Source of the DNA: a virus
Lineage: Duplodnaviria > Caudoviricetes
Length of the DNA stretch: 58,150 nt
IMG/VR virus record: IMGVR_UViG_3300033141_003493
Coordinates: 1 to 58,150 of that record
Direction: 5' to 3' (one strand)
Shown here: piece after piece, positions 3,112 to 52,647 of the stretch
How the letters are laid out: every line of letters starts with the position of its first letter
How positions within the stretch are numbered: position 1 is the first letter of the stretch
Position numbers and translations under genes: made by a program
The notes under the pieces: generated by a model
What the model was told of the DNA's origin: nothing
The model's input: only the letters and a program-made list of their open reading frames with translations
Databases searched by the model: none

Positions 3112-3806
3112 GTGGCAGGGCCGCCGCGACTCTTGTCGCCGGCGATTGCAATCGCGGCGATTGGAAGTGGCAAGGCCACCGGCGATTGGAAATCGCATCG
3201 CTTTGCAGGATCAGTAAACAAAACACGGGGTTTAGGCCATGCTTAGCACCGTTTCGTTCGTCAAAATGCAGGATATGCTGCTAGGAACCGCAAGGAGGGA
3301 ATGCATGGCAAGGCCATCGGCGATTGGAAATCGCATAGTGACCACATGCAGCGCGGCGAGGCCCCCGACGATTGGAAATCGCGCCGCCGACGATTGGGAA
3401 TCGTATCGTGACGACTGGGGGTCGTATGATGGTTGGTGGTTCCGGCTTGCTGATATTGATGCGGTGAAGCGTTACTTTGGTGGTTGTACGATTGTGCTCA
3501 AATCCGGCAACACGGTTAGTCTACAGGGTGAGGAGGCCGACAGGTTTATGGCCGACTTGACATAGGTGGCAGAGCCACCGACGGTTGAAACGTGAATAAA
3601 AGTCACGAGTAAATGCGTATATATAAGTGAAGAGTTTCTCTGGACGTTTTCACCACGCTGTGTGGCAAGGCCACCGGCGATTGGAAATCGCAACGTAGAG
3701 ATATTCTCCTGGCCTTCCGTGGCAAGGCCACCGGCGACTAGAAGTCGCCCAGAATCCCCCCTACTTTCCCCCAACGCGGCATTTGCCGCCGACGATTAGA
3801 AATCGT
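3112..3806 (+). repeat. cluster of double-hairpin repeats, consensus GTGGC-AAG-GCCAC-CG-GCGAT-TGGAA-ATCGC
   Basis: copies near 3112, 3167, 3305, 3353, 3566, 3662, 3719, 3776 plus partial copies. Confidence 0.9.
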
Positions 3807-5129
3807 ATGGCAGAGTTAGCCCTTTGGGACATTCCGCTGGAGCTCAAGGAAGCCTTATGGGCGCACAGCGGTTACGTTCCCACCCCCGAACAACTAGCTG
3901 TCCATGCGGACAACTCCAGGATCAAGCAGGTCGTTGGCGGAGAGCGGGCCGGCAAGTCTCGCCTGACCGCCGAGGAGCTGTACTGCTGGGCCACCTACGA
4001 TCCGGGTCTCTACTGGATTGTAGGCCCGGACTACGATCTAGCCAGACCGGAGTTTGAGCACCTGGTCAGGGCTTTGGGAGTACAGATCAAAGACCTCTCT
4101 CAGCCGAAAGCAGGCTCCTGGGAGCTCAAGACCCACCTCGGGTCCCATGTAGTTACGAAGACCTCCACTGATCCTATGTCCCTGGCCGGGCGTGCTCCCA
4201 AGGGCATTGCTATGGTGGAGGCCGCCCAGCAAACCTACGAGGCCTTTCTGAGGGTACGGGGGCGGGTGGCCGAGACCCGGGGGCCGCTGATCCTTTCCGG
4301 GACTCTGGAGGGTGTCGCCTTCGTATCTTGGTATCACGACCTGTACAGGCGCTGGCGGGCCGACAACCCTGACGACGCTCGTTCTTTCTCCATCCCCACC
4401 TGGTCCAATACTGCCATTTTCCCCGGCGGCAGGGATGATCCCGAGATCAAGTCTCTGGAGGCCACCTACCCTCGGGACGTGTTTCTGGAGCGGTTCGGGG
4501 CCGAGCCCTCTATGCCTCTCAGTCTGGTCTTTCGTGAGTTCAGCCATCCGGAGCACGTTCAGACCTGCGTTCTCGACAAGAAGGAGGGCGTTCAGCTCTG
4601 GATAGACCCCGGATATGCGGGGGCTTACGCAGTGCTGGCCGTGCAGGTTCGGGACGAGCACGTGTACGTGCTGGACGAGGTTTACGAAAGGGGCCAGACC
4701 GCACACCAAGTCATTCAGGAGTGCAGGAGCCGCCCCTGGTGGAAGTATGTCAAAGCCGGGGTGATAGATATTGCCGCCAGGCAGCACCACGGTCAAGAGT
4801 CCCAACTGGAGATATGGGCGCATTTGACCGGCCTCCGACTCCATTCCCAGAAAGTCCCTATTCCCGATGGCATTCTCCGTCTCCGAACCTTCCTCGTTGA
4901 TCCCGAGACCGGGAAGCCCCGCATTACTTTCGACCCGAAGTGTGTCAACACTATCCGCGAGTTTGCCCTCTATCGGTACAAGGACGCAAAAGAGGGCCGC
5001 CCCATCTCAGAAACCCCGATTAGCGCCGACAACCACGCGATATCTGCTCTCATTTACGGCCTGGTGTCTAACTTTGGCTTTGTGCGGCTTCGCCGTGAGC
5101 GTATACGGGCCAGGATCAGCCGTAACTAA
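3807..5129 (+). CDS. terL: terminase large subunit
   Basis: Walker A GGERAGKS, Walker B-like IAMVEA, nuclease WIDPG and DNHAISAL motifs. Confidence 0.9.
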   Translation: MAELALWDIPLELKEALWAHSGYVPTPEQLAVHADNSRIKQVVGGERAGKSRLTAEELYCWATYDPGLYWIVGPDYDLARPEFEHLVRALGVQIKDLSQPKAGSWELKTHLGSHVVTKTSTDPMSLAGRAPKGIAMVEAAQQTYEAFLRVRGRVAETRGPLILSGTLEGVAFVSWYHDLYRRWRADNPDDARSFSIPTWSNTAIFPGGRDDPEIKSLEATYPRDVFLERFGAEPSMPLSLVFREFSHPEHVQTCVLDKKEGVQLWIDPGYAGAYAVLAVQVRDEHVYVLDEVYERGQTAHQVIQECRSRPWWKYVKAGVIDIAARQHHGQESQLEIWAHLTGLRLHSQKVPIPDGILRLRTFLVDPETGKPRITFDPKCVNTIREFALYRYKDAKEGRPISETPISADNHAISALIYGLVSNFGFVRLRRERIRARISRN

Positions 5130-5193: not shown

Positions 5194-7389
5194 ATGAGTG
5201 ACGAATACCCCGATCTGGACGCCCTGAAGGACCGCCTGAGGTCAGACTGGTCGGAGCGGGACCGCGTTATCAAGGAAATGCGCTCTCTGCGCTTTATGGA
5301 GTGGGAGCCAGAGGTCCCCGTAAGCATGGAGCCGGAGACGGTGAGATCGCCGATTGCTCACCAGATCGTGGAAAGAATGACCGGCACACTGACGGCCAAC
5401 CCCCCAACCATCACAGTTCCCCCTGCTGACGAGACCCAGGATGCCAGGGAACGATCCTCCAAGATGGAGAAGTTCCTGGCAGCGGGTATGCACAGGTTGC
5501 AACAGCAGTCGGACCAAGATGTCGTAGATCGGTTTATCGAGTCGCTCATCGCCGATGGTCACGGTTGTATGCGGATGCTCTATGCGCCGCAGCTGTGGCG
5601 CGGTTTCCCCCGCAAGACCAAGGATGAGGAAGACCGCGAGTACAACAAGCGGACCGAGATATGGAAAAAGGGGCGCTCCTTGCCGATTGCCTGGAACTGG
5701 GTAGACCCCCTTACTGTATATCCGCTGTACGGCGAGTTCGGGCTCTATGGCGTTCTGGAGATTGACGAAAGGGATCTTCTCACCCTCCACCCCGACAAGT
5801 GGAACATACAGAAGCCCGATTTGGAAAACCTATCCCGGCTCAACCGACGTAAGGGCACCTCGGTGGAGTTCGCTCAGTGGTGGACTCCAGAGACTCTCAC
5901 CTACTGGGTGGAGGGGGAGATCGTCCATCATCAGAAGCACAAGTACGGTGCTCCGCCCTATGTCTATGCCATGGGACTGGGCGCTGCCAGTACGGACCCC
6001 AAATACATGGGCATGTCCTGTATCTGGCCCATTCGGGAGCTCATTCCCTACCTGGATCGGCTGCTTTCCCAGAAGGCCACGGCTATTCGCATGTGGTGTT
6101 GGCCCACCGTGGTGGTCAGGCAAACGAACTTGAGCGATCTCATTGGCGCTGGGGAGGGGGAGACTCCGCTTAGGGAGATAAACATTGCTCCCGGTTCTAC
6201 GGTAAGTCTCTACCAGGATGAGGAGATCAGCTTCCTGACCTGGCAGGGGAACGGCCCCGATGCCGACGAGATGGTCCGGCTGGTGATGTCCATGATCGAG
6301 CGGGCCGGGCTCTCCGATGCCATGTACGGACAGTCTGCCGGCGAGTCGGGCTATGCACTGAACCAACTCATCGCCGCAGCCCGGATGCGCTTCAAGCCCA
6401 TCATCGCCCACGCGGAGCGGGCTCTGGAGATGCAGATGGAGGTGTTGCTGGACATCATCGAGAATCACGCCAAGCAGAAGCTCTACGTCTACCCCCGTGG
6501 GGAAAAGGGATGGATCGGTCTGGGTCCGGACGATATCAGGGGCTATCGCCAGGTTCGGGTAGAGCTGAACCCGGTTATGCCTACCGACGCCTATGCCAGG
6601 AGCTCCCAGGCTATCAACGAGGTGAACGCGGGACTTCGGAGCCGCGAGTCGGCCATGGAGATGATCGACATTCCCCAGCCCGATGAGGAGATGCGCCGCA
6701 TTCTGCTGGATAAGTGGAAGGCTGATCCCAAGGTGCAGCAGTGGCTCATAGACCAGGCTCTCAAGAAGGCCGGAATCATGCTCTCCCAGGGCGATATGAC
6801 TATGAGCCAGATACAGAAGGCGTATCCCGATATGCCCCCAGGATTGCAGCAAGCGGTATCGGCCAGGTTGCAGGCCAGCGCCCCTCCGGGGATGAGCGTA
6901 CAGCAACTGGGCATGAGGGAGCCTCCGCAGGGTGGATTTAGGCCCGGAGAGTCTCCCGGGATTGAGCAGGCCGGAATACCCATGGGGCTACCAATGGGAC
7001 AACCAATGGGACCACCAGTGGGGTTTCCAAGCGGCCCGGTAGCCATGGGTAACCCCCAGGAGCTGGTACAGCAGTATGCGCAGCTTGTTCAGGTGCTGGC
7101 CCAGAGGATGGGGATAACCGAAGAGCAACTGGTGCAGTGGCTCATTCAGCAAGCTCAGCAGCTGGGTATCCCGTTGCAGCAACTTATTCAGCAGTTAGCG
7201 GAAAGGATACTGGGCGGCGCTACGCCCACCGCCACGGGACAACAGTTTCGTGGGGCTGGGCCGCAGGTGATGGCTACACCCGGGGTTAGGGCTACGCCAC
7301 AGCCAGCTCGCGTAGGCAGAAGAGTGATGCCAAGTGGCATTGCTACAGGAATGGCACCCGCAGCAAAGCGCAGAGGAATAGAGTCCTAG
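5194..7389 (+). CDS. portal protein with long Q/P/G-rich C-terminal extension
   Basis: 731 aa directly after terL; podovirus-type portal features (DPLTVYP, SGYALNQL). Confidence 0.8.
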   Translation: MSDEYPDLDALKDRLRSDWSERDRVIKEMRSLRFMEWEPEVPVSMEPETVRSPIAHQIVERMTGTLTANPPTITVPPADETQDARERSSKMEKFLAAGMHRLQQQSDQDVVDRFIESLIADGHGCMRMLYAPQLWRGFPRKTKDEEDREYNKRTEIWKKGRSLPIAWNWVDPLTVYPLYGEFGLYGVLEIDERDLLTLHPDKWNIQKPDLENLSRLNRRKGTSVEFAQWWTPETLTYWVEGEIVHHQKHKYGAPPYVYAMGLGAASTDPKYMGMSCIWPIRELIPYLDRLLSQKATAIRMWCWPTVVVRQTNLSDLIGAGEGETPLREINIAPGSTVSLYQDEEISFLTWQGNGPDADEMVRLVMSMIERAGLSDAMYGQSAGESGYALNQLIAAARMRFKPIIAHAERALEMQMEVLLDIIENHAKQKLYVYPRGEKGWIGLGPDDIRGYRQVRVELNPVMPTDAYARSSQAINEVNAGLRSRESAMEMIDIPQPDEEMRRILLDKWKADPKVQQWLIDQALKKAGIMLSQGDMTMSQIQKAYPDMPPGLQQAVSARLQASAPPGMSVQQLGMREPPQGGFRPGESPGIEQAGIPMGLPMGQPMGPPVGFPSGPVAMGNPQELVQQYAQLVQVLAQRMGITEEQLVQWLIQQAQQLGIPLQQLIQQLAERILGGATPTATGQQFRGAGPQVMATPGVRATPQPARVGRRVMPSGIATGMAPAAKRRGIES

Positions 7390-7595: not shown

Positions 7596-7655
7596 CATGA
7601 TGCGAGCGGCGTGGCGACGGCAGCTAAGCGCCGGGGCATAGAGAGGTAGGTACAC

Positions 7656-7982
7656 ATGATCTGTTTGCTGAATAGCGTAACTGAGTCCAAGAATCGTGTT
7701 CGTGTTGGTGTCATTCACTACAAGCCTGAGCGCCTGAGCGCTGGGGTGCGCAACGCGGGCATCATGGTGGACAAGACGGAGGCAGACCTGCCGCGACCCG
7801 AGCAGCGAAGGGGTATGACGGGGGTGCTCTACTTCAACCCGGCCACTAAGGCGTTCTGGTACGAGTATGTGCCGAGGCCATTGACGCAGGAGGAGTTGCT
7901 TGAGGACCTTCTGAGCCGGCTTGATGAGACCAATGCTCGATTGGACAACCTGATAGCACGGTTAGAGGCATCACGGAGCTAA
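7656..7982 (+). CDS. putative fibre-associated chaperone
   Basis: LYFNPATKAFWYEYVPRPLTQEE motif plus coiled-coil tail; precedes the propeller gene. Confidence 0.5.
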   Translation: MICLLNSVTESKNRVRVGVIHYKPERLSAGVRNAGIMVDKTEADLPRPEQRRGMTGVLYFNPATKAFWYEYVPRPLTQEELLEDLLSRLDETNARLDNLIARLEASRS

Positions 7983-7983
7983 C

Positions 7984-10026
7984 GTGACGCGGTATATTTA
8001 CTGTGGGGGCTATACAACCCAAACGGTCTGGCAGATCGACCCCTCGGACATGTCCAAAGTGGCGGAGAGCGCCGACTATGGGGGGGCTATCTACGAGCTC
8101 ACTACGGATGCTAGCTACGTCTACTGTGGGGGCTATACTCAAACGGTCTGGCAGATAGACCCGTCAGATATGTCAAAGGTAGCTGAGAGTGCTAGCTACG
8201 GCGGGTATATCAACGCTCTTGCTACGGACGCTAGTTACATCTACTGCGGGGGGGCTGGAAGCTACAAAGTCTGGCAGATAGACCCCTCGGACATGTCCAA
8301 GGTAGCAGAGAGCGCCGGCTATGGGGATCGGATCGAGGCTCTTGCTACGGACGCTAGTTATATCTACTGCGGGGGTCGCACCGAAACAGTCTGGCAGATA
8401 GACCCCTCGGATATGTCCAAGGTGGCAGAGAGTGCTGACTATGGCGGGGCTATCAACGCTCTCGCTACGGATGGTACTTACGTTTACTGCGGGGGCAATA
8501 CCGGAACAGTTTGGCAGATAGACCCCTCGGATATGTCCAAGGTAGCAGAGAGTGCCGACTATGGGGATCGGATCTACGCTCTTGTTACGGACGCTACTTA
8601 CGTCTACTGCGGAGGCTATATAATCAACAAAGTCTGGCAGATAGACCCCTCGGACATGTCCAAGGTAGCTGAGAGCGCTAGCTATGGGCAGACTATCTAC
8701 GGTCTCGCTACGGATGCTAGTTACGTCTACTGTGGGGGCTATAGCAAAGTCTGGCAGATAGACCCCTCGGATATGTCCAAGGTAGCAGAGAGCGCTAGCT
8801 ATGGGGGGACTATCAGCGCTCTCACTGTCACGAAGCAAGAGGAGGGAGGTGAGGAGGTCTACGCTGACCTCACGCTGAACCGCGTGATGGCACTTAGCGA
8901 TACCGGCCAAGCAGATGCGGCGGCTGGTCTGAACCTCGCTCGCACTTTGGATACTGTAAGCGGCCCAGGGGCAGCAGATGCAAATGGTCTGGCCACGCTT
9001 ACACGCCTGCTCGGTCTTGCTGATACAGGGCAAACCGATGCTGAGGGTAGTCTGAGCCTTGCTGCGCTGAGGGCATTGAGCAGCTTGGGATACTTGGAGG
9101 CAAGCCGAGCGGTGACGCTAAGTCATAGCCGCACTGCAACCGCTACAGCCATGGCTGACGGCCAAGGAGTGGTCAACCTGGCGTCCTCACGAGCTATCGC
9201 CGGGGCGAGTGAGGCGCAAGCCGAGGCATATGCAGCGTTGGCGCGGATAGTGGCCCTAAGTTTGGCCCGTGAAGCAACTGTGGACCAGACCCTCATGCTG
9301 GCGCTTGTCAGGGCTTTGGATGCCGGGGCAGAGGCAGGCGCCCAGGGAGCTAGCGTGCTTTCGCGGGCGCTGGCTCTGACTGACGCGGCGGAAGCTGACA
9401 CGGACGGCGTCCTGTCGCTACTGCGCTCACTCGGTGCTGATGCCGCAGCGCTGGCGGACGCAAGCGCGATGCTCACGCTGACACGTAGTGTGGCAGTGAA
9501 TGCGCTCGGCGCAGTGGAGGCCGCAGCAGGGCTTACACTGGCCATTCTCCAGGGTCTGGCCACGGTCGCCGACGTGGAGGTCCCAGGCGCTGTTGATGTC
9601 GCTTTGGCGCTCTCCATGGGGCTGGGTTTTGAAGCAACATCTCAGGCAATCGCCGAGGCTGAGGCCGCTCTGGGTCGCTACCTTGCGATGCTCCTAGAGA
9701 GCGAAGCTCAAGCTACTGTGACGGTGAGTCTGTCTCGCAGCGCGGGGCTGGACAGCGAGGCACAGCGTGTTGCAGATACCGAGGTTGTGTTGGCTGTAGA
9801 CCTTGGGGCAAGCGCCGGCAGCGAAGCTGTAGCAGACGGTGGGGTTGGCCTCGACCAGGTGCGGGCGGCGTTGGTCGTGGCGCAGGCCGTTGCAGCAGCT
9901 GGGATCGCTCTGGAGGCGATACGCGATATACAGATTGTCCGGGGTGTGCTGCTTGCCACCATCGTTATGCCGGCGAAGCGGACCTATCAGGTAGAGGCAG
10001 AAAATCGTGCACATACGGTACGGTGA
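7984..10026 (+). CDS. 7-blade beta-propeller repeat protein with Ala-rich stalk (putative receptor-binding or virion fibre)
   Basis: 7 near-identical ~42-aa repeats YCGG-x-VWQIDPSDMSKVAESAxYG, Ala/Leu-rich region, C-terminal RTYQVEAENR. Confidence 0.8.
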   Translation: MTRYIYCGGYTTQTVWQIDPSDMSKVAESADYGGAIYELTTDASYVYCGGYTQTVWQIDPSDMSKVAESASYGGYINALATDASYIYCGGAGSYKVWQIDPSDMSKVAESAGYGDRIEALATDASYIYCGGRTETVWQIDPSDMSKVAESADYGGAINALATDGTYVYCGGNTGTVWQIDPSDMSKVAESADYGDRIYALVTDATYVYCGGYIINKVWQIDPSDMSKVAESASYGQTIYGLATDASYVYCGGYSKVWQIDPSDMSKVAESASYGGTISALTVTKQEEGGEEVYADLTLNRVMALSDTGQADAAAGLNLARTLDTVSGPGAADANGLATLTRLLGLADTGQTDAEGSLSLAALRALSSLGYLEASRAVTLSHSRTATATAMADGQGVVNLASSRAIAGASEAQAEAYAALARIVALSLAREATVDQTLMLALVRALDAGAEAGAQGASVLSRALALTDAAEADTDGVLSLLRSLGADAAALADASAMLTLTRSVAVNALGAVEAAAGLTLAILQGLATVADVEVPGAVDVALALSMGLGFEATSQAIAEAEAALGRYLAMLLESEAQATVTVSLSRSAGLDSEAQRVADTEVVLAVDLGASAGSEAVADGGVGLDQVRAALVVAQAVAAAGIALEAIRDIQIVRGVLLATIVMPAKRTYQVEAENRAHTVR

Positions 10027-10052
10027 AGCGCTAGAGCCATCACGGAGCTAAC

Positions 10053-11078
10053 GTGACGCGATATATCTACTGCGCGGGTGAGGCAGACGCCCCAACAGTT
10101 TGGCAGATAGACCCCTCGGACATGCTCAAGGTAAGAGAGAGTGCCGACTATGGTAGCTACATCGACGTTCTGGCTACGGATGCTAGTTATATCTACTGTG
10201 GGGGTTCTATCAAAGTCTGGCAGATAGATCCCTCGGACATGTCCAAAGTAGCGGAGAGCGCCGACTATGGTAGCTACATCTACGCCCTTGCTACTGATGC
10301 TAGTTACATCTACTGCGGAGGCCACGCAACCCAAACAGTTTGGCAGATAAACCCCTCGGATATGTCAAAGGTAGCGGAAAGCGCCGATTATGGGGGGATT
10401 ATCTACGCTCTCGCTGCGGATGCTAGTTACATCTACTGCGGAGGCCACGCAACTCGAACAGTTTGGCAGATAGACCCCTCGGACATGTCAAAGGCAGCAG
10501 AGAGTCCCAACTATGGCGGATATATCCGCGCTCTTGCTACCGATACTAGTTATATCTATTGCGGGGGTTCTACAACTCACACAGTTTGGCAGATAGACCC
10601 CTCGGATATGTCCAAGGTGGCCGAGAGTGCCGACTACGGTAGCGATATTGAGGCTCTTGCTACCGATGCTAGTTACGTTTACTGTGGAGGAGATAGTTGC
10701 ACAGTCTGGCAGATAGATCCCTCAGACATGTCGAGGGTGGCAGAAAGTGCTAACTATGGAGATTGGATCTACGCCCTTGCTACGGATGGCACTTATCTGT
10801 ACTGCGGGGGCTACACAAACTCAACAGTTTGGCAGATAGACCCTTCGGACATGTCCAAGGTAGCAGAGAGCGCTACATATGGCTGGTGTGTCCGCGCTCT
10901 TGCTGTCGCACAGTTGAAGGCGGTCTACGCTGACCTCACACTAAACCGCGTACACGATATACAGATTATCTGGGATGTATTGCTTGCCAACATCGCTATG
11001 CCGGCGAACCGGACGTATCGGGTAGAGGCAGAAGATCGTACATATACGGTACGGCGTCGGGAACACTTCATTGCGTAG
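10053..11078 (+). CDS. second 7-blade beta-propeller paralog lacking the Ala-rich stalk
   Basis: same repeat framework and same upstream catcacggagctaacGTG; VYADLTLNRV fused directly to the DIQI...RTYRVEAEDR tail. Confidence 0.8.
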   Translation: MTRYIYCAGEADAPTVWQIDPSDMLKVRESADYGSYIDVLATDASYIYCGGSIKVWQIDPSDMSKVAESADYGSYIYALATDASYIYCGGHATQTVWQINPSDMSKVAESADYGGIIYALAADASYIYCGGHATRTVWQIDPSDMSKAAESPNYGGYIRALATDTSYIYCGGSTTHTVWQIDPSDMSKVAESADYGSDIEALATDASYVYCGGDSCTVWQIDPSDMSRVAESANYGDWIYALATDGTYLYCGGYTNSTVWQIDPSDMSKVAESATYGWCVRALAVAQLKAVYADLTLNRVHDIQIIWDVLLANIAMPANRTYRVEAEDRTYTVRRREHFIA

Positions 11079-11100
11079 ATGCAGAGAATAAGGAGAGATA

Positions 11101-11607
11101 ATGGAAACGAGGGTAAGGGTCAAGCTGGCCAATCACTTTCGGGTCGAGGCGTGGCGTGGCGACAGGCTACTCTGGGTTGATGAGTTTGACAACTTGGTGG
11201 TCAACGAGGGCCTGGATGACGCGCTGGACAAGCACCTCAAGGGATCGAGTTATACAGCGGCTTGGTATGTCGGTCTGGCCGATGGTACGCCCAGTTTCGC
11301 CGCCGGCGATACGATGGCTAGCCACGCGGGTTGGTCGGAAGTTACAGCCTATGATGAGGCCAACAGGCCGACCCTGACGCTGGGCACCGTGTCCGGCCAG
11401 TCGGTGGACAACTCGGCCAGCAAGGCAGAGTTCACCATTAGTAGCAATGACACGACCATCGGTGGCGCATTCGTCGTGAGCGATAACACCAAGGGCGGGA
11501 CGACAGGCGTGCTCTACGGCGGTGGCGCGTTCAGCGCCGGTGACAAGACGCTCGACGACAACGACGTGCTGCGGGTGACGGTGACTTGCACGGCATCTGC
11601 GTCCTAA
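11101..11607 (+). CDS. virion structural protein (fibre/collar associated)
   Basis: NLVVNEGLD...WYVGL...AAGDT pattern common in phage fibre modules; good SD. Confidence 0.6.
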   Translation: METRVRVKLANHFRVEAWRGDRLLWVDEFDNLVVNEGLDDALDKHLKGSSYTAAWYVGLADGTPSFAAGDTMASHAGWSEVTAYDEANRPTLTLGTVSGQSVDNSASKAEFTISSNDTTIGGAFVVSDNTKGGTTGVLYGGGAFSAGDKTLDDNDVLRVTVTCTASAS

Positions 11608-11619
11608 CGGCGGTGTAGC

Positions 11620-11826
11620 ATGGCTCGGGACGACACCATCGTAGATAGCGAATGGATCGTCCCCGACGGCCTGGTTCTCGATGACGAGAGCTTTACTACT
11701 AGCAAGACCGTGGTCTGGCTGACTGGTGGTACCGCAAAGACCCGTTATGAGGTCACGAACCGTATCACTACGTCAGATGGGCGAATAGACGACCGCACTA
11801 TTCTTATCTACGTTATCGAGCGATAG
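11620..11826 (+). CDS. fibre-tail adaptor-like protein, possibly N-terminally truncated
   Basis: DTIVDSEW...VWLTGG...YEVTNRITTSDGR..DRT pattern. Confidence 0.5.
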   Translation: MARDDTIVDSEWIVPDGLVLDDESFTTSKTVVWLTGGTAKTRYEVTNRITTSDGRIDDRTILIYVIER

Positions 11827-11851: not shown

Positions 11852-12679
11852 ATGGCTATGACGATTGAGGAGCGTCATGCGTACTGCCTCTACCCCGCAG
11901 TTCGTGTGAAGTCCGGGAAGACCATGGGGTCCGGAACGGTGGTCTACGTGGAGCCGGCTCCTGGTGAAGAGGGCCTATACGATATCTACGTTTTGACCAA
12001 CGAACACGTTGTTGATGATCTCATCAAGGTGGAGAAGAGGTGGAGCTCTCTGCTGAAGCGGGAGATTCCCACCGATGTGACGGGGCAGCCCGATGTGGAG
12101 TTCTTCACCTATGCCTATCGGTCTCGAACTGTAGGTGCTGCCGCCTATCAGTCAGAGATTGTAGCCTACGACAAGGATGAGGACTTGGCTCTGCTGAGGA
12201 TTCGTTCTCCCTACAAGCACGAGTACACGGCGCGACTGGTTCCCGAGGAGGAGATCAAGCAGCTGTGGGCCTTTGAGGAAGTCTGGAACGTTGGTTGTGG
12301 CATGGGCGCAAAGCCGGTTATTACCCGGGGCTATCTGAGCTCTTTCGGTTGGGATATTGACAACCGCGACTACATGCTTATCTCTGCTGCCAGCTACTTT
12401 GGGAACTCCGGTGGGGCAACCTTCCTGGAACGAACCGGTTGGATGATTGGCATTCCGGCCAGGATCGCGGTGGCCAACCTGGGGTTTAGCCCCGACGTGG
12501 TGACTCATCTGGGCTTCAGCATCTCTCCGGCGCGCATCTACGATTTCCTCAGAGCGCAAGTCTTCGACTTTATCATCGACCCGGACAAAACGTCACAGCA
12601 GTGCGAGGAAGAGCGGGGGCGTCGCAGGAAAGAGGACCAGTACCTCCAACTTCGAGAGGAACAGGAAAAGATAAGTTAG
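11852..12679 (+). CDS. trypsin-like serine protease (S1)
   Basis: catalytic motifs LTNEHVV (His), DLALL (Asp), GNSGG (Ser). Confidence 0.85.
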   Translation: MAMTIEERHAYCLYPAVRVKSGKTMGSGTVVYVEPAPGEEGLYDIYVLTNEHVVDDLIKVEKRWSSLLKREIPTDVTGQPDVEFFTYAYRSRTVGAAAYQSEIVAYDKDEDLALLRIRSPYKHEYTARLVPEEEIKQLWAFEEVWNVGCGMGAKPVITRGYLSSFGWDIDNRDYMLISAASYFGNSGGATFLERTGWMIGIPARIAVANLGFSPDVVTHLGFSISPARIYDFLRAQVFDFIIDPDKTSQQCEEERGRRRKEDQYLQLREEQEKIS

Positions 12680-15968: not shown

Positions 15969-18900
15969 GTGCCGCTGGCCGATTTCTGGCGATACATTCC
16001 AATCCGGGAGCACCTTTTCCAGGAAGAAGAGGAAGAGGAACCCCTGCGGCCCCCGCCTCCCGGTATGCGTCCTCCTGCCGGCATCCCGCCCGGCATAGCT
16101 CTCTCGGAGATTGCCACCCCAGAGGGGATGATCCCCGGTGGTGCCAGGGCGCCGCAGTTACAGCCCACTCCCACTCCGATCCCGACCCCTGTACAACCCG
16201 ATTCCCAATCGCCGGTGGCCCTGCCACCAATGCCGGTTCCCGTACAGCCAACACCGGCTCCTGTACAGCCAACGCCCCCTCCAGTAGTACGACCACAACC
16301 TGCTCCTGGTCCTGAGACCTGGGCGCGGGAACCCTCGCTCTGGGAAGCTATTGTGCAATCTGCGGAGGCGGCGATTGAGCCGATAGAGGAGCTTTTCGAG
16401 GGTCTACTCGCGCCGCCGGAGCCCATACAGCCTCCGCAGCCCCAGGAATACCGACGGCCTGCTGCCCCCTTCTTAGAAGAGCTGGCTGCGAGCTACGGCC
16501 TAGGTAAAGAAGCCACGGAGGTCTCTCCGGCTATTACCACGCTGGGGAGTGCGATTCAACTCTACGAAGAGCTTAGCGGACGGCGAACTCCCGAGGAGGT
16601 GATCGCTGAGTACGAGGAGAGAGTCCGGGCGCTGGGTGGCGAGCCCTTGTATGGTCCAAAGCCTACTCGTGAGGAGACTCTGGCTCTCTTCCAGTTGGCC
16701 AACGAGCGGGCTCTCTCGGTACCCCAAATCGCTAAGATATATCAGCTGGCTGACCAGGCGGGCATGGCCTCACGAGAGTACGTTGCTGCACCCGCAGGTG
16801 GAGCCGTGCAGACTGCCATTGACATATTACGTGGGAAGATGTCTGTACACGACTTCGCCACGGTAGCGGGGGCGCTGGGCGGTGTTAGCCCCGACCAAGA
16901 CCTCATCGAGCGGACGGCTCGCGCACTGGCGGGTGCCTATGCCTATGTGCGTCTCCGCGAGTACGAGATGCCCTGGCTAAGCCGTATTGTCGCAGAGACG
17001 ACACTCGATCCCTTTGGGCTCGTTGTGAACTCGTTGCTTTTCGGCTTGAAGCCCACCTCTCGTATTGGTCAGATACTACTGTTCGCATACAAGGCGCTGG
17101 ACAAGGTGGACTTAGCCTGCAACTACGCGACCATGACTCCCGAGCAGTTTATGACTGCCATGGCCTTCAATACTCTGGTCAGGCTGGGCATTGATTTTAC
17201 TGGCAAGGGTTTGGCGCGGCTAAGCCAAGAGTGGCAGGGCTTGGGCGATGCTCTGAAGACAAGCCGTAACAGGGCTGAGCTAGAACGCGAGCTTCTGCGC
17301 TGGGCGCAGAGGGATATCAAGGCCGAGATTCTGCGCGGCGTAGATTACGATTCGGCCACAAACATAGGACGGAGCGTGGGGGCTAGTCCTGAGGAGGTGC
17401 AAAAGGTTCTGGCGGAGGTCTTGGCTTCTGAGGGTAAGACTGCCGAAACCTCAAACCCCGCCTTGGCTCGGCGTCTGTGGCTGCGGTTTGCTGGACCCTT
17501 GTGGGACTATGGACGCATTCAACAAAAGTACGCTCAGGCCATGTTAGAGGGAGCCAAGCGCGACCCGCACACTTTGGACGAGATTGTAGAGGGAGCCAAG
17601 CGAGCAGAGATTCCCGGCCGCGTTGAGGAGACTCTGGAGTACGCTGCCGGTCGTTATCAGCCCTCCATTGAGCGACGCTATCGCCCCGAGGTGGTTGAGG
17701 AGCCCAAGCTCCCCACAGAACCTCCTACAGAGCCCCTTCGTCGTCATGTTGCCCCACGAGAGAGGCGTTGGGGACCAGAGCGCCCTACGCCAAAGCAGTT
17801 AGAGGAGACGGTTGAGCCGGAAGAGGCCATCCTTCGTTTCTGGAGCGAGTTCGGTTACGGGGCTATGAGCCCGGGGGAGTTTATGAAACGCCTCGAGCAA
17901 ATGGAGGCAGAGATTGAGCCCCGTTTGCCCGAGGAGCCTCGGCCCGCTGAGACAGGGCGTCCTCCCGAGGAATACCGGCCGTATGGGGAGCCCCCGGAGC
18001 TGCAGGCCTATTTTACCGAGGCGGATATCGAACCCATGAGCCCAGTGGACGCCCGATGGACTTTTGGGACTGATGAGGCATTCCGTTGGCGAGACCGCGG
18101 AGATGTTCAGAAGGGCAGGCCACTGAACATTGAGGAGGTCCCCGAGGTTGTCTATCACGCAACAGTGGATCTGCCCACCGTGCTCAAGCAGGGCGTCCTG
18201 CGAGGCCAAGTCGGTGGCGGCGGGCTGGGTGGTGGACAACGCTCCGGGGTTTCCGTAACGACGAAAGCCGAAGAGGCTCTACTTATTGTTCGTGAGTTCA
18301 GGCGGGCCGCCGAGATCGCCAGAGGCGGAGATCTGTCCGTACTGCTGCCACAGTGGGCGAGAGAAGACGCCCGGCTTGCCGGCTTGCCAGAAGACGCCCT
18401 GGACAAACTCGCTCAGAACTTTGTCAGAGAGTATCAGTGGCGGCAAAAGGAATACCCACAGTACGGCGCAGATAATGCCTGGACGAGTTATCGAACCTAT
18501 TTGATTACGCGCCAGAGTGCTGGCGGGCCACGTAACCCGATTCTATACGGAACTGTGGAGCAATATGCTGCTCTCGACCCCGAAAAGCTTGGCGTATTGA
18601 GCATTCCCAGGGAGAACCTTTATGCCTCCGGTGCTCTGGTAGTCCCTCGAGACGATGCCCTAAGCGAAATCCGGGTCTATGGCGATGTGCCGGTCCGCGA
18701 TGCGCAAGTAGTAGACCTTACAACGGGTCGGCCGTTACCTGCTGTAGAAACTCGCCCCTCTGAGGAATACAGGCCCTCCGAGAGACCCTTGGAGACAGAG
18801 CCGGAAATGGGTAAAAGACTGCCCGAGTATCCGTTCCCGCCGGGCGCATATACCCCAGAGGAGTTTGCCCAGATTCTGCGCGATATGGAAGAGCGGGGTC

Positions 18901-21900
18901 GGTTCCCCATGGGTACGGGCGCTGGTGGGTATGTGGAACCCGGTCGTGTTCCAGAGTTTGATCCGACTACACTACACCCCGCCCCTGAACTCGGACCCAT
19001 AGTTAGAGACGCCCTGGCTTGGCGGTATCTTACCGCGAAGCAAGGCCGCATGGCGCGCAAATCCGATCTGGACGACTGGCTTATGGATAGGTTCGGCCTG
19101 TCGGAAATAGAAGCACGCGACATCAGCAACTACATCGAAAGCCACTATCCCTTCTCTTTCAGAATCCGCGGCGGGCGGGCGGAGTGGTCTGTCAAAGAGT
19201 CCGGCGGTATGCCTGAGCCAAAACTCTCTGATTACCCTGACCTGGCAGTTTCTCCCGTATCACGAGCAGAAGAAGTGGAGGTTCAAGAACCTCGTCCGGC
19301 TGTTTCTGAGAAGCCGGAGCCAGAGCTGGGAGAGGCGAGAGAAGAGCCACTGGTGACTGCACGTTACGTCGTCTTCCCCCCATATACAGCCGGTCCTGGC
19401 GGTTCTGACAAGCGCAGACGCTTCCGACAGCGCCTGCGGCGGTATCGTGAGCGCATGGAGCAATACGGTCTCGAGGTGCGTTTCATCTGGGATGAGTTGG
19501 GTCCGCCCGAGTTCGAGGTACGCGGCACCCGCGAACAGATAGAAGCAGCCAAGGAAGGTACCAAACGTCTCAAACTGGAGTGGCAGCCGGAACGTCCTCC
19601 TGCCGTAGCGGAAAGGCCAGTACCGGAGCTGGGAGAACCTGCTGAGGAGCCTCGCCCAGAACGTCCTCCTGCCGTAGCGGAAAGGCCGGTACCGGAGCTG
19701 GGAGAAGCCAGAGAACAGCCGCTAGCAACTGCGCATTACGTCGTCTTTCCCGCAGATACAAACAGTGCCACCCGACGACGCTTGCGGCGCTATGCTGAAC
19801 GCATGAGGGAGTATGGGCTCCATGTACTTCCTATCTGGCGTGACGTGGGTCCCTGGGGCAAGATGGGTCCACCTGAGTTCGAAGTACGCGGCACCCGCGA
19901 ACAGATAGAAGCAGCTAAGGAGGGCACTAAGCGTCTCCAACTGGAGTGGCAACCAGAGTTCGAAAAGCCCGCCGAGGAACGTCGCCCGGAACGTCCCCCT
20001 GCGATAGCCGAGAGACCTCAGCCAGAGTTAGGAGAAGCCAGAGAAGAACCAATAGCAACCGCCCGTTACGCTGTCTTTCCCGCAGATACGGACAGTGCGA
20101 CCCGACAGCGCATACGGCGCTATGCTGAACGCATAAAGCAGTATGGGCTAAATGTACGTCCTGTCTACGTACCTTCTACCGAGCAGGAGGTAGGTCTGCC
20201 CGAGTTCGAAGTATTTGGTAGCCATGAGCAGGTAGAAGCAGCCAAGGAGGGCACTAAGCGCCTCCAACTGGAGTGGCAAGCGACAACAGAGTGGCAACCA
20301 AAGTTCATGAGGCCCGCTGAGGAACGTCGTCCGGAGCGTCCTCCCGCTGCTGCTGAGAGACCCGAACCAGAGCTGGAAAGGCCGCTGGAAAGAGAACCTA
20401 GACCTCCCGCTGCCGCTGAGAGACCAGCACCAGAGTTAGGAAAGCCAGCCGAGAGGCCTCGTCCAGAACGTCCTCCCGCTGTAGCAGAAAGACCCGAACC
20501 GGAGCTGGGAAAGCCGCGAGAGAGAGAACGTAGACCTCCCGCCATTGCTGAGAGACCAGTGCCAGAGCTGGGAAAGCCACCAGAAGAGGAGCGCAGACCT
20601 CCTGCCGTTGCTGAGAGACCGGTACCGGAGTTGGGAGATATCACGGTTCCAGAGCGAAAGACCTTCCCCGAGGAAAAGTTCGGCCCAGAGCCACACATCG
20701 TTGTGGCTACCGGCCCTGATCCCAACAAGGGTTATGAGTTTGTCGTTGATGTAGTTCCCGAAGATGAGCTGGTCACTTCTCACTCTTGGACCGGTGAGGA
20801 ACACATAGAGTACCCCCGTAACCTTCAGCCCCGCATAAGTCGGGCAGACCGGCCCTCGCGGGAACAGATCGCTCACATAGCTGCGACTCTACAGCCTCGA
20901 GAGCTGACCAAGGGTCTGGACATAGATCAGCCGGGGACCCTGGATACCGGCGCTCCCATCGTAGCCGACCACCTAAGTCCCGATGGTGAGCCCATCACTG
21001 CCGTAGAGTCCGGGAACGCCCGGGTCGAAGCCATCAGACTAGCCAAGGAGCAGTTTCCAGACCGTTACGAGGACTATCAGGTCCGGCTGCTGGAGGAGTT
21101 GAAGCGTTACCCCGACCTTGCAGCCAAAGCTGAAGACTTGATAGAGGAGGGGCGTGCCCCGATAGCGGTACGTCATCGGGTGAGTGACGTAGACCCCGAG
21201 GCCTTTGTAGATGAGGCCAATGTACCGGCTGTACAGGCGTACACTCCCGCGGATCAGGCCGGGGTGGATGCCCGACGCTACCTGACCGACGACATAGTAC
21301 GTAGCCTGGACGTTGAGAGAGACGAGGCCGGCGTCGAGCAACAACTGCGAGCACAACCCGAGTTCGTCCGGGGGTTCGTCAAGAAACTCCCCCAGCGAGA
21401 ACAGGCCGTGGATGAGCGGGGTGAGCCCACGCCCCAGACGATACAGCGTTTGGCCAACGCGCTTCTGGCCAAGGCGTTTCCCGGACCGGAGGGAGAGGAA
21501 CTTCGCAAGACCCTCACGGCGCGTTACCCTACCAGCATTCAGCAGGGGGTTCTGGACGCTGCGCCACAACTGGCCGTTGCCGAGACTCTGATCGCTGCGG
21601 GGGAAAGAGACCCAAGCCTGAGCATTGCCAAGGACTTGGCTAAGGTAGTCAACGTTTTGACCATCGTTGAGGATAGCAACACGACGGTGGCCAAATGGCT
21701 GACCAAAGAGCGGACCGAGCCCCGACTGCCGGGTGTGGAGAGTGTGCTGACTCCGGTACAGGAAGCTTTATTGGAGGCCCTGGACACGGTACGTCGTCAA
21801 CCAGCAGCGGTGCGGGAGTTCCTTCGGGCCTACGCCAGGAAAGTCGTTGCCGAGCCAACTCTGACCGTAAAGCCCCTCGCACCCGAGATGGCTCCCATCT

Positions 21901-26650: not shown

Positions 26651-27580
26651 ATGGCTCTTACACTTGCACAAAGTGCTGTCCTGTGTCAGGACAAGCTGGT
26701 CAAGGGCATTATAGAGGAGCTCGTCAAGGAGTCGCCGCTTCTAAAGAAGCTGCCCTTCATGGAGCTCCAGGGTAATGCCCTGGCCTTGAATCGTGAAGAC
26801 GTTGACAACATGGGCAGCGTCCAGTTCTACCCCGTAGGCGGTGTGTGGACCGAGAGTACTGCTCAGTTCGAGCAGGCCACTTTCAGTCTGTACACCCTCG
26901 GTGGAGACGCGGACGTACCGACCCTGATTCAGCGGTCCCGGTCGAATATCAACGACCAGATGGCCGCGCAGGTGAAGGTCAAGACCAAGCTCATGGGTCA
27001 TGCCTTCGAGTACCAGGCTGTCTATGGCGTCGCCGCGTCGTCTCATGGCTTTGACGGCGTGCACACGCTCGTAAGCGACGATCAGCAGGTACACATGGTC
27101 GATTCCGGTACTAGCGGGGCGGCCCTGACCATCGCCAAACTGGATGAGTTGCTGGACTGCATCCGCGGCGGCCGAGCCGACATCCTCATGATGAACCGTA
27201 ACATTCGCCGTCGTCTGACTCAGTACCTGCGAACCGTGGGTTCTTACCAGACGGAGCGTGATGACTACGGGAACTTGTGGGAGATGTGGGGCGAGGTCCC
27301 CATCGTCATCAACGATGCCATAACCCAAGAGGAGTCGCTTGTTGACGGGGCTTACAGTGAGCCGACAGGCGGCAATACTTCCAGCATTTTCGCCATTCGC
27401 TTTGGCGAGGGCGATGGGCTGGTAGGTATTCAGAATGGCGGCATCGAGACGGACGTATTCGACAAACTGGAGACCAAGGACGCGATGCGCACCCGCATCC
27501 GCTGGTACTGCGGCATCGCCTTGTACTCCACGCTGGCCCTTGCCCGTCTGGACGGCATCACCGACGAAGCTATCAGCTGA
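26651..27580 (+). CDS. major capsid protein (HK97 fold)
   Basis: 309 aa MALTLAQSA...SPLLKKLPF...LGGDADV...RTRIRWYCGIAL...LARLDGI. Confidence 0.9.
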   Translation: MALTLAQSAVLCQDKLVKGIIEELVKESPLLKKLPFMELQGNALALNREDVDNMGSVQFYPVGGVWTESTAQFEQATFSLYTLGGDADVPTLIQRSRSNINDQMAAQVKVKTKLMGHAFEYQAVYGVAASSHGFDGVHTLVSDDQQVHMVDSGTSGAALTIAKLDELLDCIRGGRADILMMNRNIRRRLTQYLRTVGSYQTERDDYGNLWEMWGEVPIVINDAITQEESLVDGAYSEPTGGNTSSIFAIRFGEGDGLVGIQNGGIETDVFDKLETKDAMRTRIRWYCGIALYSTLALARLDGITDEAIS

Positions 27581-28078: not shown

Positions 28079-28921
28079 TTGAGTGCAACCCTCAAGGAGC
28101 TCCGTCAGGGCCTGGGACGTGATCTCCACGAACTCTACGTAGGACAGATCGTTACCGCAACGACCACGAGCTTTACCGACCCCTCCCTCATCGACTGGCG
28201 AGGGGCTGGCGATCAGAAGCTCGGTTCCGCCTGGGTGCGAATCAGTTCGGGTAACCAGGCCGGGACAACGAGGCGCGTCGGTTCCTACGATGATGAGGTC
28301 GGCAGGGTCATTGTTACCCGCGAGTGGACGCCCCCTGCTGGCGACGACGAGTACGAGCTCCACGTTTTGTTGAGCCCCGATGATATAGATCACTGTATCA
28401 ACCGCACCCTGCGACGATGCTACCAGCGGGGCTGGGAGGAACTCATCCCGGCTGCTGGACAGCGCCAGTACCCACTCGTTTTCTCTTGGATGCGCGACCC
28501 CCACCAAATCCGCCGGGTGTACTGGCGCGAGGGAGAAATGGACCAACAGCGGTTTTATCCCTTCCGGTGGTGGTGGGTGCAGGACAATGCCGGAGAGTAC
28601 ACCCTGCATGTCAGACCAACCACTGTGGCCAGCACCACGACCATCATGCTGGATGTGGTGCGGCCTTATGAAGAGCTGACCGACGACGCTGACACTACGG
28701 ACTGCCCCGAGGAGTGGGTCAAGGCCGGGGCGGAGATGGAAGTATATCGTCTGTTGTCTCACCGAGACCCCGCCCGAGACGCTACCCGTTGGAAACAACT
28801 CCAGATGGAAGCCGCCCAGCGGTTTGCTCGCCTGACTCGAGCCTACTCGCCCCGGCGTCAAGTTAGGGTGCAGCTACCCGATAGCGTATTGCGGAATCTA
28901 TCCTCGGATATTGCGAGATAA
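28079..28921 (+). CDS. head-tail adaptor protein
   Basis: TLKELRQ.L N-terminus, position after capsid genes. Confidence 0.55.
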   Translation: MSATLKELRQGLGRDLHELYVGQIVTATTTSFTDPSLIDWRGAGDQKLGSAWVRISSGNQAGTTRRVGSYDDEVGRVIVTREWTPPAGDDEYELHVLLSPDDIDHCINRTLRRCYQRGWEELIPAAGQRQYPLVFSWMRDPHQIRRVYWREGEMDQQRFYPFRWWWVQDNAGEYTLHVRPTTVASTTTIMLDVVRPYEELTDDADTTDCPEEWVKAGAEMEVYRLLSHRDPARDATRWKQLQMEAAQRFARLTRAYSPRRQVRVQLPDSVLRNLSSDIAR

Positions 28922-38592: not shown

Positions 38593-39519
38593 ATGAAGGA
38601 TGTCTTGAGGCGGCTGGCCGAGCCGTTTCCCGAGAAGACCATCCAGTGGCTACCACAAAGTGTCACTAAGGATGGGCAACGAGCCTTGGCGGTGGCCTAT
38701 ATCGACCCCCGGGATGTACAGCGCCGCCTGGACGAGGTGGTTGGTATGGACTGGTCTTTCCAGTGGGAACCAATCTCTGAGACAGAGGAGGTAAACAGCG
38801 CGGGGCGGAAGGACGTTCTAATCACGGTTCGGGGGACACTGACCGTGCAGGGTACTACGCGCTCGGACGTGGGAGAGGGACACAAGAGCCGAGCGGGTTA
38901 TAAGGCCGCCGTCTCCGATGCCATCAAACGTTGCGGAGTCCAGTTTGGCATCGGCCGTTATCTCTACTATCTGCCCAAGACCTGGGTCCCGTATGACCAA
39001 AATACCAAACAACTCAAATCCACACCCAAGCTACCGTCTTGGGCTTTACCAGGTGCGTCGTGGAACCAAGCAGATGGTCCAGCCAGAAGTGAAGAGCCCG
39101 AAGTAGAAGAGGAGCAAAGTGAGGAGGAACAAAGGGCCGCCGTCCGACGTGAGAGAGGCGATCCAAACATTCGACCCTGGACGCCCGAGACGCTAAAGAG
39201 AGAAATCGCTATTCAGGCCCTACACGGCTATCAGCGAGAAGCTACCGAGAAACAGAAACAGACGGTACGGATGGTGCTAAAAAACCTCTTCCCAGACGAT
39301 CCCGAGGCTGAGGCTAAACGACATATGTTGCTGGGCTACCTCACCGGCAACGAGAGCAGCAAGGAAATGACTGGCCCCATGGCCTCGGCCTTGATTGCGT
39401 GGGCGTCAGAACCGGCCTGGGAGGAGAGCAAAAAGGTTCTTGTACCCAGTAAGTTAGCCATCCAGGAGGCTGCCAACGTTATGCGGGTCTTGGCAATGAC
39501 TGCACAGGAGGGACTGTGA
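38593..39519 (+). CDS. Rad52/Sak-family single-strand annealing recombinase
   Basis: AYIDPRDVQRRLDEVVG, KAAVSDAIKRCGVQFGIGRYLY. Confidence 0.9.
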   Translation: MKDVLRRLAEPFPEKTIQWLPQSVTKDGQRALAVAYIDPRDVQRRLDEVVGMDWSFQWEPISETEEVNSAGRKDVLITVRGTLTVQGTTRSDVGEGHKSRAGYKAAVSDAIKRCGVQFGIGRYLYYLPKTWVPYDQNTKQLKSTPKLPSWALPGASWNQADGPARSEEPEVEEEQSEEEQRAAVRRERGDPNIRPWTPETLKREIAIQALHGYQREATEKQKQTVRMVLKNLFPDDPEAEAKRHMLLGYLTGNESSKEMTGPMASALIAWASEPAWEESKKVLVPSKLAIQEAANVMRVLAMTAQEGL

Positions 39520-50290: not shown

Positions 50291-50451
50291 CCGGTCCTCA
50301 GTCTGGTTCCGGTTCCATGTTGATATTATATGGGATGACGGCGGTCTGGGGCTTACATGGACTTTGTATAATGGTGCAGGAGAGGTGGCACTTCGCATTC
50401 TGGGGTTGGTTGTGTCTTTGGAGTGGTGGCCATCGGATGTGTGGGTAGCAG

Positions 50452-52552: not shown

Positions 52553-52592
52553 TTAGTTCCCCCTGTACCTTACCAACTGAATAGAATCTACT

Positions 52593-52633: not shown

Positions 52634-52647
52634 ACAGCGGTATGTGT

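Follow-up and report, generated by a model that had tools for sequence, protein, structure and literature searches.

Paired long and short WD40-like propeller proteins as probable tips of a chain-like tail fibre in an uncultured podophage

Two adjacent genes in an uncultured viral genome encode tandem arrays of similar repeats, and both the role of these proteins and the way in which the repeats have evolved are considered here. The genome is the IMG/VR record IMGVR_UViG_3300033141_003493, analysed whole; its 58,150 bases, of linear class and 74% complete according to CheckV, are referred to as the window. Judged from its gene set, the window belongs to an uncultured podophage of the SU10/GP4 kind. 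An initial annotation of the locus, made from the sequence, had described the two genes (here A and B) as twin beta-propeller cassettes with a constant framework and hypervariable loops, and as a candidate system for receptor diversification that works without a reverse transcriptase. The features of the locus and of the two genes that follow it are listed below (aa, amino acids; nt, nucleotides; ORF, open reading frame; AF2, AlphaFold2 model).

7961..7983, + strand: start region of gene A with a GGAG ribosome-binding site, overlapping the 3' end of the upstream ORF at 7656-7982
7984..10026, + strand: gene A, 680 aa, with a propeller, a periodic stalk (putative 'rope') and a putative C-terminal anchor (ORF list, AF2)
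7993..8838, + strand: blades A1-A7 of a predicted WD40-like seven-bladed propeller (repeat table, DNA profile, AF2)
8857..9924, + strand: linker VYADLTLNRV of gene A and its Ala-rich stalk of about 18 units of 20 residues (hydrophobic autocorrelation)
9925..10023, + strand: C-terminal tail of gene A with the putative anchor motif ...IVMPAKRTYQVEAENRAHTVR (87% nt identity to the gene B tail)
10030..10052, + strand: start region of gene B, duplicating the sequence that precedes gene A
10053..11078, + strand: gene B, 341 aa, with a propeller, linker and putative anchor, without the stalk (ORF list, AF2, Foldseek)
10062..10916, + strand: blades B1-B7 (repeat table, DNA profile)
10923..11075, + strand: linker and putative C-terminal anchor of gene B (comparison with gene A, motif)
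11101..11607, + strand: 168-aa homologue of a chain-like-fibre monomer (phmmer E 3e-10 to PDB 26la_U/44nx; phrog_8123 E 6e-31)
11620..11826, + strand: 68-aa protein like the fibre-tail adaptor gp77 of phage GP4 (PF23148 E 3e-21; PDB 8jou_D E 0.003)

Genes A and B have both of their ends in common. The sequences preceding their GTG start codons are identical at 21 of 23 nt, and an identical run of 23 nt covers the GGAG and the start codon. The linker VYADLTLNRV is present in both genes (27 of 30 nt identical), as is a C-terminal tail of 33 codons (87% nt identity), and gene B lacks the ~1.07 kb that parts the linker from the tail in gene A. The shared 5' junction and tail, and the absence of a stalk of about 1 kb from the second copy, had been noted in the initial annotation and are borne out. 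The region before gene B looks like a relic of duplication, because its counterpart before gene A is the 3' end of the upstream ORF, and the two genes are best described as paralogues, one with and one without the stalk. Gene B has its own ribosome-binding site and start codon, a full open frame, all seven blades and a confidently predicted propeller.

Each gene carries 7 tandem units of 39-42 codons. The 14 blades (7+7) of the initial annotation were recovered, with a measured unit length of 117-126 nt in place of the ~126-129 nt given there; a blade DNA profile finds exactly 14 copies across the record, and the same search of the whole record returned no further copies below E 1. The loop sequences given earlier agree exactly with the repeat table. 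Loop 1 reads YTTQT, YTQT, AGSYK, RTET, NTGT, YIINK and YSK in gene A, and EADAPT, SIK, HATQT, HATRT, STTHT, DSCT and YTNST in gene B. Loop 2 reads GAIYE, GYINA, DRIEA, GAINA, DRIYA, QTIYG and GTISA in gene A, and SYIDV, SYIYA, GIIYA, GYIRA, SDIEA, DWIYA and WCVRA in gene B. These loops account for the variable columns 7-11, 28, 31, 32 and 34 of a 41-column blade profile (7-12, 29, 32, 33 and 35 in the 42-column table), and their residues are mostly Thr, Tyr, Ser and Gly. Loop-2 halves had been thought to reassort, as a signature of recombination, which the table does not bear out: on inspection, all four combinations occur for none of the pairs of first-half and second-half states, and Tyr, the commonest second-half residue (6 of 14), recurs with several partners.

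The framework around the loops had been described as near-invariant DNA, a description that does not hold. The 44-mer quoted for it fits only 7 of the 14 blades at up to 3 mismatches (A3-A7, B5 and B7; chance expectation 0), and pairwise framework identity ranges from 71 to 94% of nt, with a mean of about 83%. The proportion of synonymous sites that differ (pS) is 0.56 over blade pairs, and the synonymous codon heterozygosity of the framework is 0.36-0.45, against 0.61-0.63 expected at saturation from the codon usage of the phage itself. With synonymous diversity this high, the constancy of the framework is mostly at the protein level, where blades within a protein are 0.75 (gene A) and 0.72 (gene B) identical. 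The blades thus appear to share descent and to have been diverging for a long time. The proposed comparison of loops with framework gives a ratio of nonsynonymous to synonymous proportions (pN/pS) of 0.10 for the framework (bootstrap 0.04-0.20) and 1.09 for the loops (0.76-1.54). Loops therefore evolve about ten times faster than the framework, at a near-neutral rate; a ratio of 1.09 with this bootstrap range does not demonstrate positive selection on them. Framework comparisons within each gene give pN 0.036 and pS 0.47 among the blades of gene A, and pN 0.073 and pS 0.63 among those of gene B (pN/pS about 0.12).

Structure prediction shows the N-terminal part of both proteins as a WD40-like seven-bladed beta-propeller. 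The AF2 model of gene B has a mean predicted local distance difference test score (pLDDT) of 89.2, with residues 1-290 above 90 and a disordered tail. In the model of gene A, residues 1-285 are above 90, the stalk lies at 34-66, and three short strands are drawn at the C terminus. DSSP assigns 28 strands to residues 2-288 of the gene B model and the same number to residues 1-285 of gene A, four per unit. A Foldseek search with the gene B model returned at least 500 matches at E<=0.001, to WD40 propellers, of which the best by TM-score is the designer WD40 protein 7bid (target TM 0.90, root-mean-square deviation 1.6), and which include the natural WD40 proteins beta-TrCP and G-beta. WD40-type Pfam models all remain below threshold (PF24807 at 20.4 bits with a cut-off of 200, PF25174 at 16.9 with a cut-off of 305), and PF00400 has no match in a Pfam scan of the propeller genes. 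The propeller is a WD40-like fold and not a member of a curated WD40 family.

A profile of the propeller family finds weak WD40 matches in the PDB, and in the alignment with CFAP52 the segments I-x-A-L, Y-x-Y-C-G and V-W-K-I fall on CFAP52's own repeat segments. We read strand A as I-x-A-L-A-T-D, strand B as Y-I-Y-C-G-G, strand C as V-W-Q-I-D and strand D as K-V-A-E-S. On that reading, loop 1 would be the B-C turn, and loop 2 the D-A loop together with the first outward-facing residues of strand A. The B-C and D-A connections share one side in an up-and-down sheet, so both variable loops would lie on one face of the propeller. In WD40 proteins, this side is the usual ligand-binding 'top' face. 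Variable loops rich in Tyr, Thr, Ser and Gly on a single face would fit a binding surface, and the propellers are plausible receptor-binding heads.

The genes that follow point to the structure on which such heads would be carried. The fibre-monomer gene lies directly downstream of gene B, and the gp77-like ORF comes next. The PDB chain matched by the 168-aa protein (26la/44nx) has 171 aa. The paper on phage A1002 names 44NX as the entry for the fibre monomers gp40 and gp41 and puts gp41 at 171 residues (PMC13730344, in its available text); on the strength of this length and citation, the chain is taken to be A1002 gp41. In the same text, the small fibre protein forms dimers that line up along a rope-like fibre-dock domain, in which about 268 residues hold 11 dimers (a sum of the stated ranges). 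The rope of A1002 carries a distal Ig-like tip domain and is anchored at its other end in the nozzle, and in GP4 the rope is encoded separately (PMC13730344). A trypsin-like peptidase gene (11852-12679, + strand; PF13365, E 2e-12) stands directly after the fibre genes of the window. Removal of the N-terminal 30 residues of gp41 by proteolysis has been suggested for A1002 (available text of PMC13730344), and by analogy the peptidase may possibly be linked to processing of the fibre monomer.

The layout of gene A is that of a tip domain followed by a 360-residue Ala-rich stalk and a short tail. Hydrophobicity along the stalk is periodic, with autocorrelation peaks at lags of 20 and 40 residues (r 0.34; the largest of 500 shuffles reached 0.22). 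A search that scored 8,000 candidates turned up no homologue of the stalk, and no Pfam family was found for it. By analogy with A1002, it may be a rope with docking sites for fibre dimers, at about 20 residues per unit, compared with the about 24 residues per dimer computed from the A1002 ranges (available text of PMC13730344).

The fibre monomer belongs to a family that is very large and unusually well conserved, with 4,887 homologues counted at E<=1e-3; among the 120 matches listed, the window's own excepted, identity is 67-82%. In IMG/VR, 592 fibre-monomer loci were confirmed, 80 of these were fetched, and upstream ORFs could be read in 77. Closer relatives carry, immediately before the gene for the fibre monomer, an ORF laid out like gene A, and the N-terminal tip of this ORF differs from one relative to another: 3 of the 8 scanned carry a ConA-like Laminin_G_3 domain and 5 have a sub-threshold match or none. 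The lectin-type tips of these three suggest that the N-terminal position is the place of the binding domain. The best stalk period is exactly 20 residues in all 12 proteins compared (gene A and 11 relatives, whose loci and segments were picked by eye), and r exceeds every shuffle in 10 of the 11 relatives. The stalks of these relatives (L012, L013, L014, L015, L017, L020, L021, L022, L024, L025 and L028) keep the 20-residue period at Ala+Gly fractions from 0.09 to 0.52. What sets the period seems to be the conserved fibre dimer and not the sequence of the rope.

The relatives also share a C-terminal motif, in which a hydrophobic strand leads to P-x-x-R-T and between one and four E-x-R strands follow. 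Searched for as a strict pattern, the motif was flagged in 12 ORFs, of which 10 were judged real and 2 to be chance matches in Arg-rich sequence. The tails of genes A and B carry the same P-x-x-R-T...E-x-R motif as the 10 related fibre loci, and we infer from this shared motif that it may be a tail anchor. More distant fibre-monomer loci have ORFs of about 140 aa and about 235 aa upstream in place of a long rope gene. In GP4, gp79 lies beside the fibre monomer gp80. It looks rope-like, being rich in Gly and Ala and ending in a motif of similar form, and is a candidate for the published GP4 rope; a period of 20 residues is weak in it (r 0.13, where the largest shuffle gave 0.18), and it is not among the solved chains.

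On this evidence, we consider it rather probable that genes A and B encode paralogous tip proteins of a chain-like tail fibre of the GP4/VP1/A1002 type, and that their blades have undergone ordinary repeat evolution. The two variable loops of each N-terminal propeller would line one face, likely the surface that binds the host. In the product of gene A, the propeller would be held at the end of a rope, about 18 units of 20 residues long, and the 168-aa fibre protein would dock on this rope as dimers. The short C-terminal beta-strand motif would fix both proteins to the tail, and the propeller of gene B, having no rope, would sit close to it. All 14 blades would descend from one ancestral blade, the framework being kept under strong purifying selection and the loops left free, or selected, to change. 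Occasional blade-to-blade conversion would reshuffle variants over evolutionary time, and no dedicated diversity-generating machinery would take part.

Several observations weigh against this interpretation. The stalk has 0 PDB matches at E<=10, including to the solved chains of A1002 and GP4; AF2 draws it as low-confidence helices and the tail as low-confidence short strands; and the binding of fibre dimers to it is drawn by analogy. A complex prediction with two fibre monomers and stalk residues 301-362 scored 0.00, with no controls run alongside, and is evidence neither way. No propeller blade was found upstream of the fibre monomer in the 77 related loci (0/77). None of them has a twin gene, and a second motif-bearing ORF occurs in 0 of the 10 loci with the motif, where up to 4 upstream ORFs were read; the twin propeller arrangement is therefore without close precedent. 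The AlphaFold models called for in the initial annotation gave the confident propeller, and the placement of both loops on one face follows from strand order and WD40 analogy, not from model coordinates. The record is 74% complete, so that genes not seen may lie outside it. Finally, the tail and linker of A and B show 6.0 synonymous differences in 33.3 sites (pS 0.18), whereas same-position blades show 74.0 in 125.5 (pS 0.59; Fisher p 3e-5 against the flanks). Simple duplication followed by divergence leaves this contrast unexplained; it needs homogenisation of the flanks, a swapped propeller module or a faster turnover of the blades.

The relations among the blades bear on these options. Blades at the same position in the two genes are no closer than other A-B pairs (0.837 versus 0.834 nt identity), and at the protein level the best A-B match lies on the diagonal for 2 of 7. 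Mean nt identity is 0.872 within A, 0.807 within B and 0.834 between them. None of the 39 polymorphic framework sites separates gene A blades from gene B blades. Sites fixed in one propeller and different in another are the criterion for independent amplification in PMC9218822 (as given in its available text), by which A and B show no sign of it (0/39). The relations of the blade sequences are consistent with a near-star tree with longer branches in gene B. The lowest framework pS for any blade pair is 0.22-0.28, among A3-A7 and for A5-B4, with a mean of 0.56; these heavy synonymous differences argue against recent copying between blades, and no recent conversion tracts were found between blades of the window. 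Recombination on framework sites is not significant (pairwise homoplasy index (PHI) p 0.06 and 0.48; longest shared tract p 0.09), in tests that have low power for units of 120 nt. When the loops are included PHI becomes significant (p 0.002-0.005), a result that was not relied on, since compatibility is built in for adjacent sites that belong to one changed loop codon.

Signs of exchange over longer times come from an independent pair of related contigs with propeller genes, L093 and L094. Their blades are orthologous one to one, with loops mostly conserved blade by blade. Over 313 nt of homologous upstream flank the pair differs at 4 sites (45 non-homologous nt at the start of L093 being excluded), and over 615 nt of blades at 31 (p 0.003). 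At 20 of the 31 differences, the base used is present at the same site of another blade, where 12.0 would be expected (p 0.003, for sites that are not independent); an ACG/TCG change occurs in three blades, and a GAC/AAC change in three. This pattern is what short-tract conversion between blades produces. Because the differences reuse bases of other blades, blade-to-blade conversion over evolutionary time is likely in the propeller family. Such conversion may explain the excess divergence of the blades in the window, and flank homogenisation or a swapped propeller module might do so as well. L093 and L094, together with L092, encode propeller-only proteins of about 300 aa, in which the blades are very uniform and a short conserved peptide stands at the C terminus; their layout resembles that of gene B, and their tail is different.

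Replacement of a whole propeller is an unlikely explanation of the locus. After the duplication, one propeller would have been exchanged by homologous recombination with a diverged relative, through the start region and the linker, in the ordinary mosaicism of host-recognition genes. The much closer similarity of start region, linker and tail than of the propellers is what such a swap would leave; the propeller is mobile, standing at the N or C terminus of many fibre and tail proteins (1,485 clusters at E<=1e-3); and the rope proteins of relatives bear unrelated tips. A foreign propeller would nevertheless be expected to carry framework changes specific to its lineage, and 0 of 39 sites distinguish A from B. 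No donor is known, the closest propellers found being 62-71% identical.

Active diversification by recombination, as in the initial annotation, appears quite unlikely. Blades would be exchanged frequently within and between A and B, helped by a Rad52/Sak-like annealase, so that a population would hold many combinations of loops. Such an annealase is encoded, as had been stated, although what has been established is its presence in the record:

38593..39519, + strand: Rad52/Sak-type (Rad52/22 family) single-strand annealing protein (PF04098, 66.9 bits in the genome search, 64.8 in the Pfam scan)

Family searches found neither RecT nor AAA_24 (Sak4-type) in the record. Rad52-type annealases are common among phage recombination genes, a point against the proposal. 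Two arrays of seven similar units stand 2 kb apart, with many shared polymorphisms and no fixed differences between them, and both here and in L093/L094 the blades are more diverged than the flanks; the reuse of bases between blades of L093 and L094, including the same A/T change in three blades, also speaks for exchange. Against frequent exchange, no pair of blades is near-identical, the framework tests named above are not significant, and gene B is translatable and selected, with no other cassettes in the record. Blades keep their positions in relatives: 7 of 7 are positionally orthologous in P0001/P0007 and in P0032/P0040 (4-6 of 7 in more distant pairs), and the loops of L093 and L094 largely match by blade. 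Orthology by position in relatives, which the initial annotation had named as a sign against its proposal, is thus seen in these pairs; A and B themselves have 2 of 7 on the diagonal. A look-up of public sequencing runs for 7600-11700 gave no entries.

It is very unlikely that gene B is a decaying or functionless duplicate, or that the propellers are structural caps or capsid-docking heads of the fibre and not receptor-binding parts: the blades of gene B are more diverged than those of gene A in both pN and pS, but gene B keeps its open frame, its seven blades, a pN/pS of about 0.12 and a confident fold, and the variable loops on one face, as well as the lectin-type domains that relatives place at the same position, fit a binding surface.

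Known systems of sequence diversification offer partial parallels. In diversity-generating retroelements (DGRs), variability falls at adenines of a template, and a reverse transcriptase and template repeat lie near the variable region. The window resembles them in having a phage receptor-binding protein, here a predicted one, with variability on a few surface residues. It differs in that the record holds no reverse transcriptase (no RVT_1 match at E<=1 in a record 74% complete) and no template repeat, only the 14 coding blades, and a DGR was rejected; the variable codons, moreover, differ at all three positions. In pilE/pilS antigenic variation and in lamprey variable lymphocyte receptor (VLR) assembly, an expressed gene has related copies that can be used as templates. 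Gene A likewise adjoins a related copy that could act as one. The cassette system proposed on this model is not supported, however: the DNA profile detected no silent, truncated or promoterless blade cassettes in the record, there are no recent tracts, and both copies are complete and under selection. Gene B is not a silent donor, because it has its own ribosome-binding site and start, an open frame, a folded propeller in the AF2 model and purifying selection on its framework. A dedicated diversification system without reverse transcriptase is not supported.

A closer working analogy than pilE/pilS would be the hnwd genes of the fungus Podospora anserina, in which WD repeats of high internal conservation vary at few specificity positions and undergo rearrangement both inside a gene and across paralogues (Chevanne et al. 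2010, PMC2873952, in its available text). The likeness lies in WD40-type repeats, few variable positions and paralogous arrays, with repeat recombination as a source of variants. In the fungus, according to the same text, instability and concerted evolution have been shown experimentally, while the blades of the window are too diverged for recent exchange. Beta-propellers in general form a continuum of amplification and differentiation (Pereira and Lupas 2022, PMC9218822, in its available text). Like the amplified repetitive propellers described there, the window blades are 72-75% identical with variation in few positions, have a star-like common origin, and belong to a family whose within-protein identity runs as a continuum from 0.37 to 0.90. 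Unlike them, as far as that text describes them, the amplification in the window is not very recent, the synonymous sites being well diverged, and A and B show no sign of having been amplified independently.

Among fibres, the systems most like the window are the chain-like fibres of GP4, VP1 and A1002 (available text of PMC13730344), with which it shares a fibre monomer homologous to the 26la/44nx chain and a gp77-like adaptor. As in A1002, a distal tip domain would stand at one end of the rope and an anchor at the other. The tip in the window is a seven-bladed propeller where A1002, by the same text, has an Ig-like domain; the putative rope of the window is not fused to a nozzle part, and a second, rope-less copy stands beside it. 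The window stalk matches no solved chain of A1002 or GP4 in sequence, and its docking role is proposed by analogy. Beta-propeller lectin domains have been described on the fibres of extracellular contractile injection systems (PMC12923769, in its available text); there too a propeller would be the presumed binding head of a phage-tail-like fibre, on a collagen-like shaft unlike that of the window, and the likeness is one of description. Literature searches brought up no description of a phage fibre that bears a WD40-like propeller with variable loops.

The propeller family extends far beyond these examples. A first search gave 75 homologues. In an exhaustive search, the number of clusters was 1,485 with the threshold at E<=1e-3, 504 when it was set to 1e-10 and 166 with 1e-30, and the proteins ranged in length from 234 to 4,958 residues. 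The propeller lies at the N terminus in some relatives and at the C terminus in others, and among the parts to which it is fused are tail-fibre repeats, Fn3-like domains and a siphophage Gp37-like tail protein. Variation among the 14 window blades falls in the same columns as variation within the proteins of relatives (Spearman 0.76, 41 columns, for 19 proteins having at least 5 full blades each). Within-protein blade identity across these 19 runs from 0.37 to 0.90, and 4 of the 19 exceed gene A; the uniformity of blades in A and B is thus high and not extreme. The closest blade relative with the ADAS junction residues of the window (L095:2-1465, + strand; 68% identity) has a partial propeller followed by a stalk rich in Ala, Gly and Thr with a 21-residue period, and its 2-kb contig holds no fibre-monomer homologue. 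No such homologue was found on the fetched stretches of the propeller loci L006-L010 and L092-L098, taken from IMG/VR and metagenomes. The largest protein (P0196, 4,958 aa) matches the propeller in 12 stretches and so would contain several propellers. P0002 has an exact internal duplication of about two blades, which by inspection would be a very recent blade duplication in a relative.

The wider gene content of the window is in keeping with a podophage of this kind, and the features concerned are as follows.

3783-5129: terminase
5194-7389: portal (weak match, under the Pfam cut-off)
15969-25790, + strand: 3,273-aa ORF with LPD38 and ddrB-ParB domains
26651-27580: SU10-type major capsid protein
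28079-28921: SU10-type adaptor (25.5 bits, just under the 27-bit cut-off)

Phage GP4 has an annotated DarB-like antirestriction protein of similar size and in a similar position to the giant ORF, a protein of DarB/polyvalent type thus being common to both, and because of this resemblance the ORF is probably an ejected polyvalent protein. Genes A and B have no DNA match in the phage genome collection. The portal has no tblastn match in that collection and no relative in the IMG/VR protein search, and the fibre monomer matches 4 records of the collection at 29-39% identity. The GC skew of the window flips near 52 kb (from +0.30 to -0.02 and below), within about 50000-54000, and large ORFs are scarce beyond about 50.4 kb.

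If genes A and B are indeed tip proteins of a chain-like fibre, a type of fibre so far recognised in a handful of solved podophages is part of an environmental group of very large size, with 4,887 homologues of the monomer. The rope proteins of this group would share a 20-residue docking period and a C-terminal anchor, with interchangeable tips, which would give a simple rule for locating the host-recognition part of such phages. To this the window would add a propeller tip and a pair of long and short tips, suggesting binding to the host at two ranges or in two steps. The variable loops on their fixed scaffold would make a natural binding surface and a possible determinant of specificity to study. 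That blades have diverged more than their flanks in two separate cases bears, in a small way, on the evolution of repeat arrays in phages. It is doubtful that the twin propellers form a repertoire of specificities driven by recombination, in which the phage's Rad52-like annealase would mediate the conversion of short tracts among the 14 blades, both inside each tip gene and across the long and the short one, and selection would act on the loops. If they did, new binding faces would arise continually, with blades evolving several-fold faster than their flanks, and the phage would have a counterpart of the fungal HNWD proteins and an alternative to DGRs that dispenses with reverse transcriptase.

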